From an uncultured virus (IMG/VR IMGVR_UViG_3300046520_000318) (lineage: Duplodnaviria > Heunggongvirae > Uroviricota > Caudoviricetes): a stretch of DNA of 64,000 bases. Position numbers and translations under genes: made by a program. Below, piece after piece: positions 23,262 to 57,468 of the stretch. The DNA lies in the IMG/VR virus record IMGVR_UViG_3300046520_000318; one strand, given 5' to 3'. The notes under the pieces were generated by a model. It had not been told where the DNA came from. It saw nothing but the letters and a program-made list of their open reading frames with translations, and ran no database searches. Positions within the stretch are counted from its first letter, which is position 1, and each line of letters starts with the position of its first letter.

Positions 23262-23534
23262 ATGATCCAGCAGTCGCCGCAGCAACTCACCATCGACTTC
23301 ACCGCCCTGGTTATCCAGATCCCACGCAGGCCGATACGCAGCACGATCTGTGCTGGCGCCACACTGGTCACTCTGGATGGCGTAACGATGCCCGCAATGG
23401 AATGGGCAGTGAGAAGGGGATTGAAGTGGCAGACAGTGAAGATGCGGCGACTGCGCGGTGATAACTGGAAGGAGGCGCTGGCCCCAGAGTTGAGGCGCAG
23501 CACCTTCATGTCAGGCTGGAAGATGCACGGTTAG
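23262..23534 (+). CDS. Small basic HTH-like protein at the Q position (candidate late regulator)
   Basis: LVTLDGVTMPAMEWAVRRGLKWQTVKMRRLRG..W.EAL resembles the HTH-like DNA-binding tails of phage HNH proteins. Confidence 0.5.
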   Translation: MIQQSPQQLTIDFTALVIQIPRRPIRSTICAGATLVTLDGVTMPAMEWAVRRGLKWQTVKMRRLRGDNWKEALAPELRRSTFMSGWKMHG

Positions 23535-23797
23535 CGCCAGACATGCAGAACCTTGTCGCCGTCGCCTTCCGCGGCTGCGCGCCACTTCAGTTCGTCGACC
23601 AAGGATTGCAGGCGGGTGATCTTCTCGGAGTCCAGGGTGCCGCCGACGATGGCGTTCTCGTTGGAGCCGGACAGGCTGATTACCAGCAGAGCGTCGGACG
23701 GATTCTGGTCCATGGCATAGGCAGCAATGCCCATCACCTCAGTGATCGCCATGTACGCAGAGTCGCGAGTAGAGCCGATAAAGTTTTTCGCAGTCAT
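23531..23797 (-). CDS. Hypothetical protein, divergent from the holin
   Basis: MTAKNFIGS..., preceded by a minus-strand copy of the CAGTCACA element. Confidence 0.55.
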   Translation of the reverse strand: MTAKNFIGSTRDSAYMAITEVMGIAAYAMDQNPSDALLVISLSGSNENAIVGGTLDSEKITRLQSLVDELKWRAAAEGDGDKVLHVWR

Positions 23798-23825
23798 GTG
23801 AAGTGCCCCGTGTGATTGAGCATTC

Positions 23826-23854
23826 AGTCCATGTGACTGACGGTAGCCGTGCAA
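23826..23854 (-). promoter_or_regulatory. CAGTCACA promoter-like element, leftward copy
   Basis: Minus strand TTGCAC-ggctaccgtCAGTCACA-TGGACT (17-bp spacer). Confidence 0.55.
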
Positions 23855-23857
23855 GCC

Positions 23858-23885
23858 TTGCCCAAAGAATCCAGTCACATAGGCT
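23858..23885 (+). promoter_or_regulatory. CAGTCACA late promoter-like element before the holin
   Basis: TTGCCC-aaagaatcCAGTCACA-TAGGCT. Confidence 0.75.
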
Positions 23886-23958
23886 GATGGCAAGACGCAA
23901 TCAGCCCAAGGGCCGAACATGACCAATGAAATCAGCAGTACCACGGCGGAGGTGAGGA

Positions 23959-27951: not shown

Positions 27952-29496
27952 ATGCCAATGTCGCTAGACGCCATGTGCACAAAGCTTATCGAGGACGATG
28001 AGCTTTACTGCAAGGTTGCCCTAAAGATCCGCACCAAAGAAGGCGCGGTGCTTCCGTTTGTGTGGAATGACGCCCAGCGCATACTGCACGAAGCTATCGA
28101 AAAGCAGCGCGCCGAGAAGGGCTGGGTTCGGGTAATTGTGCTCAAGGGTAGACAGCAGGGTATCAGCACGTACGTCGCTGCGAGGTTTTTCAAAAAGACC
28201 AGCATGAACAATGGCAAGCGGACGATGATCCTCACCCACCTCGATTCAGCCACGCAGAACCTGTTTGGCATGGCGAGGACCTTCTACGAGCAAATGCCGT
28301 CCTTCATGCGCCCTGTCACCAAGGCAAATTCAAGCCATGAGCTGTCCTTTGCAAAGAGAAATGGCGGCTACAAGGTAGCAACAGCGGGCAGTCCTGCAGC
28401 TGGTCGGTCAGGCACGGTTCAGTATCTGCATGCTTCGGAGATGGCGTTCTATCCCAACGCGCAGGAAATCATGGCTGGCTTGGGGCAAAGTCTGCCGTTG
28501 ATCGAAGGAACCGAGGGCATTATTGAATCTACGGCAAATGGTCTGGGTAATCTTTTCCACGAATATTGGGTGAAGGCCGAGGCTGGTGAATCTGATTACA
28601 TGGCCGTTTTCATTCCATGGTTTGCGGATAGAGGCTACCGCCGTAGCGACTTTTCCTTCGAAATGTCGGATGAGGATTACGAATATCAAGAGGCCTACGG
28701 CCTCGACGAAGAGCAGATGTCGTGGCGCGCCGCCAAGATCGCAACCGACTTCGCTGGCGACCACAACTGGTTCAACCAGGAATACCCGGCCACCGTTGAC
28801 CTCGCATTCCAGCGCATCGGTCATAAGCCGCTGATCAACACGGTAAAGGTATCTCTCGCCCGAAAACGACCGCTCAAGAATGCCCAGCGCATCGGCGCCC
28901 ATGTTGTAGGTCTCGACCCTGGGCGTGGCGGCGACCCTTCAGTGTTCATCCATCGCCAAGGCCGTGTGGCTTGGGGGCTGGAGCGCAACAAATCCGCAGA
29001 CACCATGAACGTAGCGGGCCAAGCCGCCCGGATGCTCCGCGAAGATCCAACCATCCGCATGATGTTCATCGATATCGGCGGAATCGGTGCGGGTGTTTAT
29101 GACCGGCTCGTGGAGCTAGGCTTTGGCGACCGCGTCACCGCCGTGAACTTCGGGTCATCTGCCTCTGACCAGCGCAAGTACTTCAACAAGCGCTCCGAGA
29201 TGTGGGGCGAGATGGCTGAATGGATTCACGACGATATAACCCCTTGCATACCTGACGATGACCGCCTGCATGGCGACCTCACCTCCGCTCGCGGCGACCA
29301 GTACAGCAGCAACGGTCAGCTGAAGCTGGATAAGAAAGAGGAGATCAAGAAGGTGTTGCGCCGCTCCCCAGACGATGGCGATGCACTTGCTCTGACTTTC
29401 GCCGAGCCGGTTTCCGCTGACGATGTATTCACAGAAGACTGGAAAGCAAAGCTGCTGAACCGGAATTCCCGAAACAAATCTGCGATGAGTGCCTGA
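27952..29496 (+). CDS. terL: Terminase large subunit
   Basis: LKGRQQGIST Walker A, LHASE Walker B, ESTANG, GLDP nuclease motif, SPDDGDALALTFA. Confidence 0.93.
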   Translation: MPMSLDAMCTKLIEDDELYCKVALKIRTKEGAVLPFVWNDAQRILHEAIEKQRAEKGWVRVIVLKGRQQGISTYVAARFFKKTSMNNGKRTMILTHLDSATQNLFGMARTFYEQMPSFMRPVTKANSSHELSFAKRNGGYKVATAGSPAAGRSGTVQYLHASEMAFYPNAQEIMAGLGQSLPLIEGTEGIIESTANGLGNLFHEYWVKAEAGESDYMAVFIPWFADRGYRRSDFSFEMSDEDYEYQEAYGLDEEQMSWRAAKIATDFAGDHNWFNQEYPATVDLAFQRIGHKPLINTVKVSLARKRPLKNAQRIGAHVVGLDPGRGGDPSVFIHRQGRVAWGLERNKSADTMNVAGQAARMLREDPTIRMMFIDIGGIGAGVYDRLVELGFGDRVTAVNFGSSASDQRKYFNKRSEMWGEMAEWIHDDITPCIPDDDRLHGDLTSARGDQYSSNGQLKLDKKEEIKKVLRRSPDDGDALALTFAEPVSADDVFTEDWKAKLLNRNSRNKSAMSA

Positions 29497-31675
29497 TATG
29501 GCTGAAGCCTCCGAAAACCAGAAAGCGACGGACAACTGGTCGCGCTACGAGTACGGTCTCAACCGTGGTCATCGCGATTACGTCGAGAAGGCTCGCGAGT
29601 GCGAGAACTATTACCTGGGCGGCGGCTGCCAGTGGAAGGACATCGACCGGCAAATTCTAGCCGAGGCTGGCCGTCCTGCTCTGGAATTCAACCAGATCAA
29701 GAACAAGATCAACGCAGCCGTGGGTTACCAGATAGGCAACCGCATGGATATCGGTTTCCGCCCACGCGCGGGTGCAGCTGATGCCGAGACGGCCAGCACG
29801 CTCTCAAAGCTCGCCATGCAGATCGCTGACAATAACCTGCTGCACTTCAAGGAAACGCAGGTGTTCAGCGATGGTGTGATTCAGCAGCGAGGTTACTTCG
29901 ACATTCGCATGAGCTACGCCGATACGATCCTCGGCGAGATCAAGATTGACATCCTCGACCCAATGGACGTGATTCCGGATCCTGACGCGAACAGCTACGA
30001 CCCTGACGATTGGGCTGACGTAACCATCACTCGAATGCTCACCCAGGTCGAGATTGAGATGCTGATGGGCACCAAGGCGCTCAAGGCGCTGGACGACGAG
30101 GATTACTCCGGCGACACCTTCCTGCCGGTGGCCGATGACGTCGAACGCGCGAAGTTCGGTGATGCCGATGCCTTCTTTCCAGAGTTCTACGGCGAAGACG
30201 AGGATGACAAGTCCACCAAGCGCTACCGGATCATCGATCGGCAGTTCTGGCAGATGGATACGGCTGACGTCGTGATCAGCGCGACGGGCGACATCCGACT
30301 GGTCGAGGACATCAACCCCAATGCCGTTGACGAGATGATCGCCGCCGGCGGGATTCGCCAGAAGCGCAAGGTCCGACGTGTGCGTTGGTTGATCACCACC
30401 AAGGACAAAGTCCTGCACGATGATTGGTCCCCATTCAACCACTTCACCGTGGTTCCGTTCTTTCCGACTTTCCGCCGCGGCAAGACTCGTGGCCTTGTGG
30501 ATGATGCGATCGGCCCGCAGCAGCTGCTCAACAAGTCTATGAGCCAGTTCCTGCACATCATCAATACCACTGCGAACAGCGGCTGGATCACGGTTGCGGG
30601 TACGCTCACCAACATGGCCGATGGCGAATTAGCTGGCCGAGGGGCTGAAACGGGCCTGCACCTGGTCATCAAGAAAGGAACCGATGCACTAGACCGGCCC
30701 CAGAAGATTCAGCCCAACCAGGTGCCCACTGGTTTCGACCGCATCATCGACCGTGCCTCGGTGCTGCTGGAGAGCGCCACCGGCGTCAATCAGGCAATGT
30801 CTGGCAATCAAGGCAACGAAGTCTCAGGTATCGCCATCCAGACCCGTCAATTCGCCGCACAGCAGCAATTGGCCGTACCGCTGGATAATCTGGGGCGTAC
30901 TCGCTCGATGGTTGCCCAGCGAGTCCTTGAGCTGATCCAGATGTATTACGACCAGCCGCGCATCATGCGCATTACTGAGTCCGACCCATCAGGCAGGGAA
31001 TCGACCACTGAAATTCCTCTGAACTGGCCGCAGGCTGACGCGCGCATCCTCAACGATTTAACCATCGGCGAATATGACGTGGTCATCACCGAGGCGCCGG
31101 CGCAGATCACCTTCGAGAACAGCCAGTTCCTGCAAGCCATTGAGCTCAACGAGAAAGGCGCGAATATCCCGTGGCCGTTCATCATCGGTTACTCGAACCT
31201 CGCCAATAAGCAGGAAATCGTCGACGCGATGTCGCAGCAGCCAGCGCCGCCAGTTGATCCTACCTTGCAGGCCAAAGCCGATCTGCTGGCCGCCCAGGCG
31301 CAGAAGACCCAAGCAGAAACCACTCGCTCGCAGGCGGATGCAGCCAAATCAGCCGCGAGTCTGGACCTGCTCAAGGCCCAAGCCGACGACACCCGGGCAG
31401 ATACCGTTTCCAAGTCCGTGACGGCACAGTTCAGCGCCATTCAGACAGCTGCAACCATCGCGCAGACCCCGGCCACAGCCAGCCTCGCGGATGCGCTGCT
31501 GATGTCGGCGGGATATGTCGACCACGACGCAGCTCCAATCGTCCCGGAATACACCGGGACCGTCCTGGCAGCACCTGACCTTCCCAAGAACACCAACCCA
31601 CTCACACCGGCAAGCCCTGCTGTAGGCATGGACACCGGCATCGAAACCCAGCGCATCGAAGGAGTACCCGCATGA
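29489..31675 (+). CDS. Portal protein (P22-like, long C-terminal barrel)
   Basis: 728 aa after terL; GRPALEFNQI...G.Q, RGLVDDAIGPQ..LNK, SGIAIQTRQ. Confidence 0.88.
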   Translation: MPDMAEASENQKATDNWSRYEYGLNRGHRDYVEKARECENYYLGGGCQWKDIDRQILAEAGRPALEFNQIKNKINAAVGYQIGNRMDIGFRPRAGAADAETASTLSKLAMQIADNNLLHFKETQVFSDGVIQQRGYFDIRMSYADTILGEIKIDILDPMDVIPDPDANSYDPDDWADVTITRMLTQVEIEMLMGTKALKALDDEDYSGDTFLPVADDVERAKFGDADAFFPEFYGEDEDDKSTKRYRIIDRQFWQMDTADVVISATGDIRLVEDINPNAVDEMIAAGGIRQKRKVRRVRWLITTKDKVLHDDWSPFNHFTVVPFFPTFRRGKTRGLVDDAIGPQQLLNKSMSQFLHIINTTANSGWITVAGTLTNMADGELAGRGAETGLHLVIKKGTDALDRPQKIQPNQVPTGFDRIIDRASVLLESATGVNQAMSGNQGNEVSGIAIQTRQFAAQQQLAVPLDNLGRTRSMVAQRVLELIQMYYDQPRIMRITESDPSGRESTTEIPLNWPQADARILNDLTIGEYDVVITEAPAQITFENSQFLQAIELNEKGANIPWPFIIGYSNLANKQEIVDAMSQQPAPPVDPTLQAKADLLAAQAQKTQAETTRSQADAAKSAASLDLLKAQADDTRADTVSKSVTAQFSAIQTAATIAQTPATASLADALLMSAGYVDHDAAPIVPEYTGTVLAAPDLPKNTNPLTPASPAVGMDTGIETQRIEGVPA

Positions 31676-31859: not shown

Positions 31860-32822
31860 ATGAGCAAAGCTGAAGCAGTACAAGAATCGCAGGAAGACAT
31901 CAACGCTCGACTGGCCGAAGAGGCCGCGCTGAGCGGGGAAGACTACGTGCCGCCGCAGGATGACCCTGATGGCGCCGTAGCACAGCAGTCAGTAAAGCCT
32001 GATGACCAGTCCGCGCCGGGCGGCGGTGAGTTGGACAACGACCAGCCACAGTACAGCGCCGACACCTTGGCATCTATCGCCGGCGACGATAAGCCGAAGA
32101 TGATCCCGCACGCCCGTTTCAACGAGGTCAACGAAGAGGCCAAGCTGCACCGTGCGCGCGTCCTTGAACTGGAAGAGGAGCTTGCTCGTGCCAAGGGCTC
32201 GGCCCCGGCTGCCGCACCGAAGAAGGAAGAACCGCCAGCACAATACGACTTCGACGACGCCGAAGATCGCTATCAAGCAGCATTCCTGGACGGCGACAGC
32301 ACCAAAGCAAAGCAGATTCGAGCCGAGATCCGCGCGGAGGAACGCAAGGCCGCCATTGCCGAGGCTGAGCAGGTCGCGGACCGCCGCTATCAAGCCAACA
32401 AAGCCACGGATGACGCGAAGCGCGCCAAGCTTGAATTCGAGCTCGCGTTGAGCAAGGCCTATGCCGCGTATCCTTTCCTCAGCGTGGACAGCGACGACAA
32501 GAATCAGGATGCCATCGACGAAACGCTGGTATGGCACCAGCACTTTGTCGCCAAGGGCAAGAGCCCAGCCGAGGCGTTGGAACTGGCTGCCGCAAAAATC
32601 GGGCCTCGTTATGCCGCAACCAAGGCTGAGCCTGCAGCCAAGACGCCTGACCCGGTTAAGCCTGATATTCAGAAAGGTTTGGATCGTGCCGCCAAGGTGC
32701 CTGGCAAGCCAGCGGGCGTCGGAGCGCGCGCCTCTAGCCTGGACGTGTCGAAGATGACCGGTAAGGAGCTAAAGAGCCTGTCCGCCGAGGATGAGGCCGC
32801 GCTAGCTGGCGATGTTGTCTAG
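31860..32822 (+). CDS. Scaffolding protein (putative)
   Basis: Acidic and helical, IPHARFNEVNEE motif, located between portal and capsid. Confidence 0.75.
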   Translation: MSKAEAVQESQEDINARLAEEAALSGEDYVPPQDDPDGAVAQQSVKPDDQSAPGGGELDNDQPQYSADTLASIAGDDKPKMIPHARFNEVNEEAKLHRARVLELEEELARAKGSAPAAAPKKEEPPAQYDFDDAEDRYQAAFLDGDSTKAKQIRAEIRAEERKAAIAEAEQVADRRYQANKATDDAKRAKLEFELALSKAYAAYPFLSVDSDDKNQDAIDETLVWHQHFVAKGKSPAEALELAAAKIGPRYAATKAEPAAKTPDPVKPDIQKGLDRAAKVPGKPAGVGARASSLDVSKMTGKELKSLSAEDEAALAGDVV

Positions 32823-32850
32823 TTGACGAAGCAATCCAGTCACATAAGTT
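32823..32850 (+). promoter_or_regulatory. CAGTCACA promoter-like element before the capsid gene
   Basis: TTGACG-aagcaatcCAGTCACA-TAAGTT. Confidence 0.8.
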
Positions 32851-32856
32851 CGTAAC

Positions 32857-33024
32857 TGCTGCGCCATCGGGACAAGGACGTCATCCAGCTTTCACAGTGG
32901 ATGGCCGACCCGAGCAGCTCGCTCACCGAGTCACGGTGTCTCTCGCCAGCAGGGCGTAAAGCTGACCTGTTTCAAGCGCATCAGGAGCGCCCAAACCTGT
33001 CCTCGCGAGGGTGGCGACATACCC
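32857..33024 (+). ncRNA. Structured capsid 5' leader (long hairpin plus tandem pseudoknots)
   Basis: Pairings read by hand; see findings. Confidence 0.6.
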
Positions 33025-33058
33025 AGAACCACAAAGCCACCTTTATAGGAATGCCCTC

Positions 33059-34177
33059 ATGGCAACTACCAATTTCGCGGCCCTTCAGCCGCAACAAAAA
33101 GTCTACTGGTCGAAAAAGACCTGGGAATCCGCTCGGGACGACATGTTCCTGAACAAATTCCTGGGCGACGGCGAATCCGCAATCATCCAGCACATCACCG
33201 AGCTGACCAAAACCGAGAAGGGCACTCAGGTCATCATGAACCTGGTTGCTGACCTTGTTGGCGACGGCGTCACCGGTGACAACTGGCGTGAAGGCAACGA
33301 AGAAGAAATGCAGGCGTACTTCCAGGAGATCCAGATTGATCTGATCTCCAACGCAGTGCGCAGCAAAGGCAAGTTGGCCGAGCAGAAGTCCGTGATCGAC
33401 TTCCGCCGCATGGCTCGCGGCCGTCTCTCCAACTGGCTGGCCCAGCGTGTTGATGAATTGGCAATCCTGACGCTGTCGGGTATCGCCTACAACTTCAACA
33501 CCGACGGCTCGGCCCGTGTCGGTTCCGCCTTCCCGGGTCTGGCTTTTGCCGCTGACGTGAGTGCCCCCTCATCGAAACGGTATCTGACCTGGGACGGCTC
33601 TAATCTGATCGCCGGCAGCACCGCCGCGATCGCCGCTACCGGCATCCCGAAATACAAGATGATCGTGGATCTCATCGCTTACGCGAAGTCGCACCACATC
33701 CGTCCTGTCATCTCCGGTGGCAAAGAGTACTACGTGCTGCTTGTACAGCCTGGCACCCTGGCGGCCCTGAAAATGGACCCGCTGTGGCAGAACGGGATCA
33801 CCAATGCAGGGGTTCGCGGCGATAACAACCCATGGTTCACCGGTGCAACCATCACGGTTGACGGCGCAATCATTCACGAGTCGAACAAGGTCTACACCAC
33901 ACTGGGCGCACCTGCGGGCAGCAAATGGGGCGCTGGCGGCAACATCAACGGCACCCGCACTCTGCTGCTGGGTTCGCAGGCTCTGGGCTTCGCTGACATC
34001 GATCAGGGCGGCGCGGGCTGGGTTGAGAAGTTGTTCAACTACGACACCCAGATGGGCGTCTCCCTCGACCGTTTCATCGGCTTCAAAAAACCTCAGTTCT
34101 ACAGCATCTACGACAAGTCGGTTCAAGACTTTGGCGTGGTCGCTGTCGACCACTATCTGCCGAACTCGGGCGCTTAA
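33059..34177 (+). CDS. Major capsid protein (N4-gp56/DUF4043-like)
   Basis: IIQHITELTKTEKG...GVTGDN.REGNEE...DFGVVAVD; AGGA RBS. Confidence 0.88.
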   Translation: MATTNFAALQPQQKVYWSKKTWESARDDMFLNKFLGDGESAIIQHITELTKTEKGTQVIMNLVADLVGDGVTGDNWREGNEEEMQAYFQEIQIDLISNAVRSKGKLAEQKSVIDFRRMARGRLSNWLAQRVDELAILTLSGIAYNFNTDGSARVGSAFPGLAFAADVSAPSSKRYLTWDGSNLIAGSTAAIAATGIPKYKMIVDLIAYAKSHHIRPVISGGKEYYVLLVQPGTLAALKMDPLWQNGITNAGVRGDNNPWFTGATITVDGAIIHESNKVYTTLGAPAGSKWGAGGNINGTRTLLLGSQALGFADIDQGGAGWVEKLFNYDTQMGVSLDRFIGFKKPQFYSIYDKSVQDFGVVAVDHYLPNSGA

Positions 34178-56144: not shown

Positions 56145-57259
56145 TATCCGGCGATTTCGCTGATATCCAGGTCAGGAACGGCCTCTGACCAGACCACTTC
56201 AGCGTGATCCTTCTGGTAGTTTTTGGTCATCTCCTCGCTGGCGTGACCAGCAATCTTTTGCCCATCCTTTCCGGCTTTCTTGTACAGGTGCAGTGACAGC
56301 GCTCTGACTTCATGGAAGCCCGGCATCTCTTCTTCTTTCCATCCCTTGTAACAATCCGCTGCCTCCCGCGCCTCCTTGAAAGCCCTGGTCAGATACCGTT
56401 CCTCAATTTTGGTCCAGTGCTCTTTCGTTTCAGCCTGCTTCTGTTTCTTTCGCTCCGGCCGCCGGTGGATGAGAAACGGGGAGACGATGTTGTCTCGGCA
56501 ATGGCTGATGACCCGCTGAAGCTCTGGTGTGACCCTGAACCGGATCCATGCCATGTCCGAAGCTTTGGCGGTCTTCTGCTGGACCACGTAGAGGTACCCA
56601 TCCTTCACGTCTTCAAACTTCATGGACAGAATGTCGGTGCGGCGCTGCGCTGTAATCAGCGCCAGATCGATTGCGTTCTGCAGCCAAGCGGGCGATTTCT
56701 CCCGGATGGATTTCAGGCCTTCGACGGTGTGGCGCTTGCGGGCTTTCTTTTCGATCCGGCTGATCGTGCTCATTGCGGGGTTGTCGGGGCACAGCCCCTT
56801 CGCTGCGGCGTGGTTGAATATGTCGATCAGCAGCGCGCGGCACTGGTTTGCAGTACGAGGCGTTACCGAATCCAGCAGCTCGGCGATCATGCGAATTGTG
56901 ATCTGGTCGATGGCCTTGCCTTCGAACGCCTTCCGAAAACGTCGAAAGTGCACTCCGTACAGGTCGAGCGTCCCTTGGGAGAGCTCGCGAGGAGGCAGCA
57001 CCTTCTTTTCATACTGGGTCAGGAATGCGGTGAACAGCTCGGCAGACTCGCCCATCACTGAATTAACCAGGTCGGCGCCCTGCATGAAGGCGAGGTTCAA
57101 TTGCTTGGCCGCGTCCACCGCCTTGACCCGATCGGCCCCGAACGGAAACCATTTGCCGTCGGTTGGCCTGCGGTAGCGATAGGTGCCGCGCCGATCATCC
57201 AGGTAGAGATTAGGCGGCAAGCCTCTGTTTGACTTGTTGCGCGGCCGTGGGACCATCAT
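56144..57259 (-). CDS. int: Lambda-type tyrosine integrase
   Basis: Arm-binding N-terminus (LPPNLY...YRYRRP); TAQRR, FHEVR, AGH and Y motifs. Confidence 0.93.
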   Translation of the reverse strand: MMVPRPRNKSNRGLPPNLYLDDRRGTYRYRRPTDGKWFPFGADRVKAVDAAKQLNLAFMQGADLVNSVMGESAELFTAFLTQYEKKVLPPRELSQGTLDLYGVHFRRFRKAFEGKAIDQITIRMIAELLDSVTPRTANQCRALLIDIFNHAAAKGLCPDNPAMSTISRIEKKARKRHTVEGLKSIREKSPAWLQNAIDLALITAQRRTDILSMKFEDVKDGYLYVVQQKTAKASDMAWIRFRVTPELQRVISHCRDNIVSPFLIHRRPERKKQKQAETKEHWTKIEERYLTRAFKEAREAADCYKGWKEEEMPGFHEVRALSLHLYKKAGKDGQKIAGHASEEMTKNYQKDHAEVVWSEAVPDLDISEIAG

Positions 57260-57468
57260 GCAGCTCCTTTCAATACCATCGCTACGAGCTCGTTGCCGGC
57301 GGACTTGTTGAAGGCCGCCCAATCGATATACCAGAGTTTCCCGATTTGCTCGCCCGGAAGCTTGCCGTCTCGGATGTAGTTGCGGATCGCCTGGGAGCAG
57401 GGGGGTGTACCGTTCTCCCCCCAGCGCCGGCGGCGGAATTCGCTGATCTTGATCAGTTCGCGCTTCAT
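57256..57468 (-). CDS. Excisionase-like protein
   Basis: IRNYIRDGKLPGEQIGKLWYID winged HTH; coupled to int. Confidence 0.75.
   Translation of the reverse strand: MKRELIKISEFRRRRWGENGTPPCSQAIRNYIRDGKLPGEQIGKLWYIDWAAFNKSAGNELVAMVLKGAA

Follow-up and report, generated by a model that had tools for sequence, protein, structure and literature searches.

Judged from comparative sequence analysis, the major capsid gene described here is headed by a real, well-supported and uncatalogued four-unit leader pseudoknot, built from a module like that of the Rfam motif GP20-b. Tailed phages need hundreds of capsid subunits for every dozen portal subunits, all from one late operon, and to our knowledge the setting of this ratio is mostly unexplained. 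The four units had been proposed in an original prediction; new beyond it are an alternative helix against the Shine-Dalgarno (SD) sequence, a hairpin with an ANGGA loop, and a link to the leaders of scaffold genes through GP20-b.

The locus and its late promoter

The window, by which we mean the whole stretch of 64,000 nucleotides that was analysed, holds a temperate podovirus-type prophage in which integrase, repressor, replication, lysis and head genes are all present. Its nearest capsid relatives among named genomes are from Pseudomonas in 5 of 5 loci. Two integrase genes (56147-57322 and 4-1185, both on the minus strand) lie about 56 kb apart and a DNA methyltransferase region follows the second, possibly indicating a second element beside the prophage, or circular permutation. 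The features discussed below are as follows.

29489..31675, + strand: portal gene, P22-like (PF16510, E 2e-100)
31860..32822, + strand: putative scaffolding protein gene, by its position between portal and capsid
32823..32850, + strand: putative late promoter (TTGACG 32823-28, CCAGTCACATA box 32836-46, TAAGTT 32845-50)
32856..32917, + strand: variable 5' stem domain (minimum free energy fold; clade-specific)
32871..32882, + strand: GAC-AAGGAC-GTC hairpin with RsmA/CsrA-type ANGGA loop on a covarying stem
32918..32938, + strand: pseudoknot PK1 (S1 CTC/GAG, L1 GCT, S2 CACC/GGTG, L3 TCAC)
32944..32964, + strand: pseudoknot PK2 (S1 CGCC/GGCG, S2 CAG/CTG, L3 TAAAG)
32976..32999, + strand: pseudoknot PK3 (S1 GCGC/GCGC, S2 CAGG/CCTG, L3 CCAAA)
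33000..33050, + strand: predicted anti-SD fold, GGGTGGC (33009-15) with GCCACCT (33036-42) and TCCT (33000-03) with the SD AGGA (33047-50)
33003..33024, + strand: pseudoknot PK4, the module nearest the ribosome-binding site (S1 TCGC/GCGA, S2 GGGTG/TACCC)
33025..33046, + strand: G-poor, A/C/U-rich spacer before the SD (11.6% G at -30..-12, n=112 leaders)
33059..34177, + strand: major capsid gene, N4-gp56/DUF4043 family (PF13252, E 2.5e-48; phrog_334)

We infer that the ORF at 31860..32822 encodes the scaffold; a Pfam and PHROG search with it returned no match. The protein is acidic and ends in ...AALAGDVV, against ...KRRLRGD in most relatives, and it has BLASTP matches in 67 of the 95 ORFs upstream of capsid genes, a set called automatically in which some calls are wrong. 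The gap between this ORF and the capsid AUG at 33059 is 236 nt and contains the pseudoknot array. Because 44 of the 95 regions between scaffold and capsid are 185 nt or less and have little room for a promoter, the array there is intercistronic.

A strict sigma-70 scan reported no promoter before the capsid leader, and the transcription start assumed in the original prediction stands instead on a promoter-like site, TTGACG-16-TAAGTT, and on the repeated late-promoter motif within it. This motif, the CCAGTCACATA box, occurs in the window in four exact copies and in seven with one mismatch, all on the + strand (1.1 expected), and in 4-8 copies per genome in 5 of 5 related phages; the site is most likely a late promoter. 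Boxes at 23831-23881, 27914, 32836, 42739, 48337 and 54212 precede holin, terminase, capsid and later genes, usually with a TTG about 13 nt upstream. An inverted copy some 30-40 nt before the first box, present in the window and in 4 of 5 relatives, would be a divergent promoter towards the minus-strand ORF 23531-23944. Among the Pfam and PHROG matches there was no Q-like or Mor-like regulator.

Four pseudoknots in the capsid leader

The four H-type pseudoknots are conserved RNA structures in cis to the capsid ribosome-binding site (RBS), and each was found where the original prediction had placed it. A chain scan of 32911-33030 returned four non-overlapping H-type pseudoknots with a score of 89, and none of 300 dinucleotide shuffles reached either four knots or that score (shuffle means 1.5 and 30.9). 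Nested folding of the leader is unremarkable (z -0.69), as is expected for pseudoknots. The check proposed with the prediction, covariation among aligned homologous leaders, came out in its favour: in a MAFFT alignment (A2) of 39 homologous leader cores the 33 proposed pairs are 95.7% paired, and 13 of the 33 carry double compensatory changes, in 63 cells. None of 500 column shuffles reaches the observed pairing, and slid controls reach 28-46%, a lenient comparison because the window and its relatives were themselves the source of the structure.

Comparison also corrected the registers of two units. Unit 1 is a knot, for which the chain scan chose a shifted fold; the register originally drawn, CTCG/CGAG with CAC/GTG, is compatible but poorer than CTC/GAG with CACC/GGTG. 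At the disputed base the original register has a one-sided change alone, whereas CACC/GGTG is 100% paired and changes from C-G to U-A at columns 13-21 in 7 sequences and from A-U to G-C at columns 11-23 in 10. The two helices of PK1 are 99% and 100% paired, with double changes in 2 pairs of the 39-sequence alignment. Unit 2 is likewise a knot, but its second stem as first drawn, AGC/GCT, failed (81% paired) and is replaced by CAG/CTG, which pairs in 38/39, 38/39 and 37/37. PK2 has the layout of the 5' half of the GP20-b consensus, and its stem 2 takes many sequences in distant leaders. PK3 is the most variable unit, with double changes in 7 of 9 pairs, and the helices of PK4 are 99% and 96% paired. 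The sequences of units 1, 2 and 4 are near-invariant, loops included, across 60-100% capsid identity.

A module shared by distant capsid leaders

The leaders compared come from loci picked by similarity of the capsid, with redundancy cut to less than 80% identity. In a set of 75, mostly at 54-100% capsid identity but with five distant references, there were on average 3.5 knots against 1.8 in shuffles, and 52 of the 75 beat all 20 of their shuffles. The 42 KPP25-like leaders, at 40-50% capsid identity, had 2.8 knots against 1.4, with 26 of 42 beating shuffles; for two groups from alphaproteobacterial phages, with reference capsids 26% and 31% identical to that of the window, the figures were 16 of 21 and 13 of 29. 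The generic chain score hardly differs between the two strands (81.6 vs 73.2) and does not discriminate between them.

An independent test took stem 1 alone (YCGN...N'CG) as the definition of the module. Across 112 leaders (the 75 and the 42 minus three Bcep22-like, one without a leader and one duplicate), a strong stem 2 is present at 165 of 439 anchors. Swapping loops and downstream segments between leaders gives 53 (maximum 70), and shuffles give 16. The 165 modules use 123 different stem 2 sequences, and in 124 of them an A stands three bases after the CG, in an A-rich loop 3. With this A required, the last 150 nt before the AUG hold 116 modules on the + strand and 8 on the - strand, against 0-14 per bin elsewhere. 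The last knot ends at a median of -37 (5-95%: -56 to -29) in 89 of the 112 leaders; after it come the G-poor spacer (11.6% G) and then a strong SD. The number of knots varies from 1 to 4. The module is a + strand RNA signal before capsid genes of the N4-gp56 family, down to 26-31% capsid identity. A role in single-stranded DNA or on the minus strand is disfavoured by the 116 to 8 asymmetry and by the tolerance of G-U on the + strand.

The signal does not extend to all such phages. No array stands in front of the capsid genes of F116 (12-nt gap), N4 (11-nt gap), P22, D79, CF418P1, Itty13, SopranoGao, Gervaise and Mwe-JY25, nor in most of the L486-L533 group; the chain score of the Pam5 leader is reached by 2 of 50 shuffles, but the leader lacks the module. 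In a first pattern scan, 56 of 120 matches had a capsid gene within 200 nt; around the remaining 64, inspection revealed no neighbouring units, and these were set down to chance. One leader (L184) carries a recent direct duplication of a two-knot block of about 45 nt, which suggests a way in which copy number changes.

A helix against the SD and a hairpin in the 5' domain

The minimum free energy fold of the window contains the anti-SD helix and excludes PK4. In 20 of 22 leaders with capsids at least 70% identical, this pairing beats 95% of spacer shuffles (p<=0.05); GCCAC sits in an otherwise variable spacer, and UCCU is invariant. The helix is paired in 97% of cells across 24 leaders with one-sided changes only, since its 5' strand is invariant, and one flanking pair swaps A-U and U-A in 4 sequences. 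Stacking energies before loop terms are -17.8 for the helix against -17.0 for both PK4 stems. The predicted helix is clade-specific: none of 14 leaders of a sister group sharing PK4 has it, and a family-wide anti-SD switch was rejected, with 7 of 89 leaders positive and 18 of 112 when the spacer was compared with the whole array. In the 60-65% group (L076, L088, L140, L028) a conserved GACA...GACGA replaces GCCAC between PK4 and the SD.

The long 5' stem of the original prediction holds in part. It starts at 32856 and has compensatory changes in the closest relatives; further out, other folds replace it, and the distance from box to PK1 ranges over 51-105 nt. Competing with the stem is the ANGGA hairpin at 32871..32882. 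In 23 of 25 leaders with capsids at least 69% identical, an ANGGAN loop closes a stem of 3 bp or more, such as GAC/GTC, GCGC/GCGC and GCAC/GTGC; the same holds for 5 of 14 leaders of the 60-65% capsid-identity group. ANGGA in a hairpin loop is described as the preferred CsrA/RsmA target (PMC7366521), and the predicted exposure of this sequence in the loop of a short leader hairpin is like such a site. No phage csrA was found in 5 related records or among the 90 ORFs of the window, so any RsmA-family regulator would be the host's. In the Bcep22-like phages Itty13 (L050), Gervaise (L051) and SopranoGao (L052), a CsrA-like gene lies between scaffold and capsid, and the capsid leaders have a small hairpin with an AGGA or AAGAC loop whose 3' side can pair beside or over the SD; a switch operated by phage CsrA is possible there.

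Scaffold-gene leaders and GP20-b

A capsid-independent pattern scan gave at least 116 loci. Among the matches listed (at least 116), 22 have a PF13252-type capsid gene downstream and 29 others have a stem 2 that pairs. Twelve of the matches listed lie before scaffold or scaffold-position genes: 2 precede PF06810 (GP20) scaffolds of Firmicute phages, 1 precedes a phrog_2303 scaffold, and 9 are single modules just after a -10-like box, with some 1-15 nt to the AUG of an acidic ORF that lacks an SD; in 4 of 5 such loci fetched further, the next gene encodes a phrog_1328 major head protein. The other 17 of the 29 are unexplained or chance, and no convincing module before another named gene class was seen among the matches listed. 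The same module is found before three unrelated head-gene sets, namely PF13252 capsids, PF06810 scaffolds, and acidic ORFs with phrog_1328 capsids.

Locus L568 matches Rfam GP20-b (RF03003) at 56.8 bits. There the first GP20-b hairpin is stem 2 of the module, its loop GGCG can pair with an upstream CGCC, and the second half folds as a PK3-type knot. The printed GP20-b consensus runs from a hairpin with a GGCGUAAAA loop through a second hairpin to UAAAAAA-GCG. Other GP20 leaders have tandem knots in which stem 1 varies as paired sets, and only 3 of 9 GP20 leaders beat 95% of shuffles on chain score. The module looks like the pseudoknotted core of GP20-b.

The likeness to the window was seen by eye and not by model score: PK2 (CAG-GGCGTAAAG-CTG) and PK3 share the GP20-b layout of a hairpin with a GGCG-UAAA loop, a second stem and an A-rich run. 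Searches with the GP20-b model at E<=1 found nothing in the nearest record (G001) or in G008, G009 and AP1, the window has no match to this model either, and GP20-a (RF02991) was above its gathering threshold in 0 of 5 records. GP20-b precedes scaffold genes (PF06810) of Firmicute phages, whereas in the window four units stand before a capsid gene of PF13252; pseudoknot pairs are missing from the printed model, though the Weinberg 2017 supplement may draw them. The array appears to be made of the same building block as GP20-b, yet it is no member by model score or position.

Two named phages show comparable folds upstream of head genes. Vibrio phage D79 (L671) is a PF13252 phage whose capsid gene follows without a gap; one perfect module, TCGC-aa-GTCAT-a-GCGA-aac-ATGAC, lies at about -43 to -20 of its scaffold-position gene. 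In P22 (L670:353-373), at the end of the portal gene and -41 to -21 of gene 8, there is a module-like fold, CGGC-a-GTGT-a-GCCG-ag-ACAC. IME10 retains this stem 1, as does a Proteus phage by way of a compensatory change, but neither retains stem 2; the chain score of this leader is reached by 18 of 200 shuffles.

Relation to known elements

At gathering thresholds no Rfam family matched the window or 20 related loci, and an E-value scan of the leader gave chance miRNA and lncRNA matches only. No description of the element was found in the openly accessible literature that was searched. The comparison with the T4 gene 32 leader made in the original prediction is fair geometrically, with pseudoknot, unstructured U/A-rich stretch and RBS in the same order. 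The T4, T2 and RB69 operators have an H-type pseudoknot 5' of an A/U-rich stretch and RBS, in a message that is stable in T4 (PMC3014915); according to PMC10690425, no Rfam model exists for this operator. It is a single knot, however, and its product binds nucleic acid, which the capsid protein is not known to do.

Further parallels are the S1-dependent standby site of tisB and the pseudoknot obstacles to RNase E scanning, both reported to work in cis by way of the host's S1/30S or its RNase E (PMC7708055, PMC9943677). Unlike the four-unit array, tisB is described with a single knot and a sequestered RBS 100 nt away (PMC7708055), and the RNase E obstacles as single knots, viral or synthetic inserts (PMC9943677). 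STAXI (RF01728) shares a simple pseudoknot repeated two or three times (PMC2864571) but is described near DNA-handling genes of Enterobacteriales and with UUCG loops; the leader has no Rfam match, no UUCG loops and no DNA-handling genes next to it. Two motifs of Fremin et al. 2023, DNAVirus_3698 (85 nt) and DNAVirus_865 (62 nt), are reported from aquatic or soil viruses within 25 nt upstream of capsid_maj_N4 in 37 and 4 cases (PMC10690425). Compared by description only, they may overlap the window array.

Proposed function of the array

We hypothesize that the array is a self-folding cassette facing the host machinery, which would block RNase E decay and present a landing pad for S1 and the 30S subunit. 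This is the best explanation that we can offer, and we give it slightly less than an even chance. Four compact knots would lie just clear of the stretch that the ribosome covers, ahead of the phage gene translated most heavily. The CG/CG pairs of stem 1 and the A of loop 3 would form tertiary contacts, and each knot would be stable without a partner; compact pseudoknots in general are the basis for expecting minor-groove contacts of fixed CG pairs and loop adenines. Coaxial knots would halt RNase E as it scans from the 5' end or from cleavage sites in the portal-scaffold message upstream, and the capsid segment would outlive that message. The knots would also shield and present a U/A-rich pad for S1/30S loading, and the outcome would be high capsid output relative to scaffold and portal. 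In the window's clade a further layer of control may have been added, an exchange between PK4 (ribosome site open) and the anti-SD helix (closed) that is probably a kinetic timer or a ligand-set switch, together with a host RsmA-type hairpin.

This cassette is weighted most because only fold-type positions are fixed, the module is common to unrelated head proteins, and the window's scaffold has lost its basic tail. That unrelated phage proteins have this motif in common suggests that it folds by itself or has a partner in the host. The steady position of the last knot ahead of a G-poor spacer and a strong SD, and the intercistronic setting of many arrays, fit as well. The KRRLRGD tail would be the obvious RNA-binding candidate in the scaffold, and the array persists where that tail has turned acidic, as in the window's clade. 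There are precedents for both activities. H-type pseudoknots with 8-15 coaxial pairs are reported to impede RNase E scanning in proportion to their length, which stem-loops do not (PMC9943677); on tisB, standby binding of S1/30S is reported to need a 5' pseudoknot (PMC7708055); and the T4 gene 32 mRNA, described as the most stable T4 message, has an RNase E cut at -71 and its pseudoknot at -67 (PMC3014915).

Several observations sit badly with the cassette. The near-invariance of units 1, 2 and 4, loops included, exceeds the strict needs of a barrier, and the conserved anti-SD helix implies a trigger outside the model. Firmicutes, the hosts of GP20 phages, differ in decay enzymes and S1. F116, N4, the Bcep22-like phages and several other PF13252 phages build heads without the array, and the nine single knots about 1-15 nt before an SD-less AUG fit an operator better than an enhancer. 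The 7-9 coaxial pairs of each knot are also at the weak end of the published ranking (PMC9943677).

Doubtful, but the strongest competitor, is an operator of head assembly in which free scaffold (or capsid) protein binds and stabilises the module. A knot over the scaffold RBS would repress scaffold, a knot opposing the anti-SD helix would turn capsid translation on, and both products would be balanced. The 22 PF13252-type capsids and 12 scaffold or scaffold-position genes among the matches listed (at least 116) argue for it, as does the fact that every identified module in the listed sample heads a head-assembly gene, some covering the start codon region; in D79, where nothing separates the capsid gene from its neighbour, the module stands ahead of that preceding gene. 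PK4 and the anti-SD helix are mutually exclusive and both conserved in the clade (20 of 22 leaders), T4 gp32 is reported to nucleate on its leader pseudoknot (PMC3014915), and the P22 scaffold is reported to regulate its own synthesis. The three head-gene groups nevertheless belong to different families, the window's scaffold is without a basic C-terminal helix, and stem 2 of the module-like fold before P22 gene 8 is lost in two relatives. The anti-SD helix, moreover, is missing in 14 of 14 sister-group leaders with the same PK4 and occurs in 7 of 89 family-wide. More specific and correspondingly improbable is the claim that a portable YCGN...N'CG mini-pseudoknot with an A-rich loop lies hidden at the core of GP20-b and serves head assembly across phyla as an operator stabilised by free scaffold, repressing scaffold where it covers the start and turning capsid on against the anti-SD helix. 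We rate just as low the idea of repeated docking sites for another conserved factor (a non-S1 host RNA-binding protein or a small ligand), the exchange of PK4 with the anti-SD helix serving as expression platform. Its appeal lies in the tandem fixed core, YCGN...N'CG-N-N-A (A in 124 of 165), in the switch-like alternative fold of the window's clade, in the covarying ANGGA hairpin, taken as a possible sign of host post-transcriptional input, and in the CsrA-like gene at the same position in Bcep22-like relatives; loop 1 and stem 2, however, are free in sequence and length and leave little of a pocket, Rfam gave no riboswitch match, and the switch is clade-specific.

Two further roles would place the array outside translation initiation. 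Its place immediately behind the late promoter, with some 14 kb of structural genes to follow, would suit a nascent-RNA antiterminator (put-like) modifying RNA polymerase for the long late operon. Such a role is very unlikely: the array keeps its spacing to the AUG and not to the promoter box, from which its distance ranges over 51-105 nt, many arrays stand without a promoter ahead of them, and none follows the other late promoters of the window. Hardly credible, finally, is a free structural RNA (packaging-RNA-like) or a recoding signal fusing scaffold to capsid. In compact leaders PK1 begins about 6-13 nt after the scaffold stop, a readthrough-like spacing, but none of 95 intergenic regions offers an open path in the same frame, and a pseudoknot for stop-codon readthrough or fusion was rejected on that count. 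Neither a terminator nor another 3' boundary lies between array and AUG, and the spacing to the RBS is fixed. The original prediction of a multivalent cis-acting RNA for capsid expression is supported, and mRNA stabilisation with translation support fits best of the four functions that it offered, with feedback by scaffold or capsid a further candidate; antitermination and the packaging-RNA role find no support.

The array is a small, strongly conserved and easily mutated RNA target in cultured phages, among them Acidovorax AP1, Pseudomonas KPP25 and phiR18, Aeromonas phiA008, Paracoccus KLEP18-1, Rhizobium RHph_Y1_10 and Clostridium phiCD38-2, and it joins proteobacterial capsid leaders to the orphan GP20-b motif. 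If the cassette is as we propose, it would be a natural tandem RNase E barrier and ribosome-loading element, useful as a synthetic 5' stabiliser. If head proteins bind it, it would be a new feedback operator of head proteins, and in the cross-phylum form a position-dependent RNA switch setting the coat-to-scaffold ratio, which would give the old question of P22 scaffold autoregulation a concrete RNA target.
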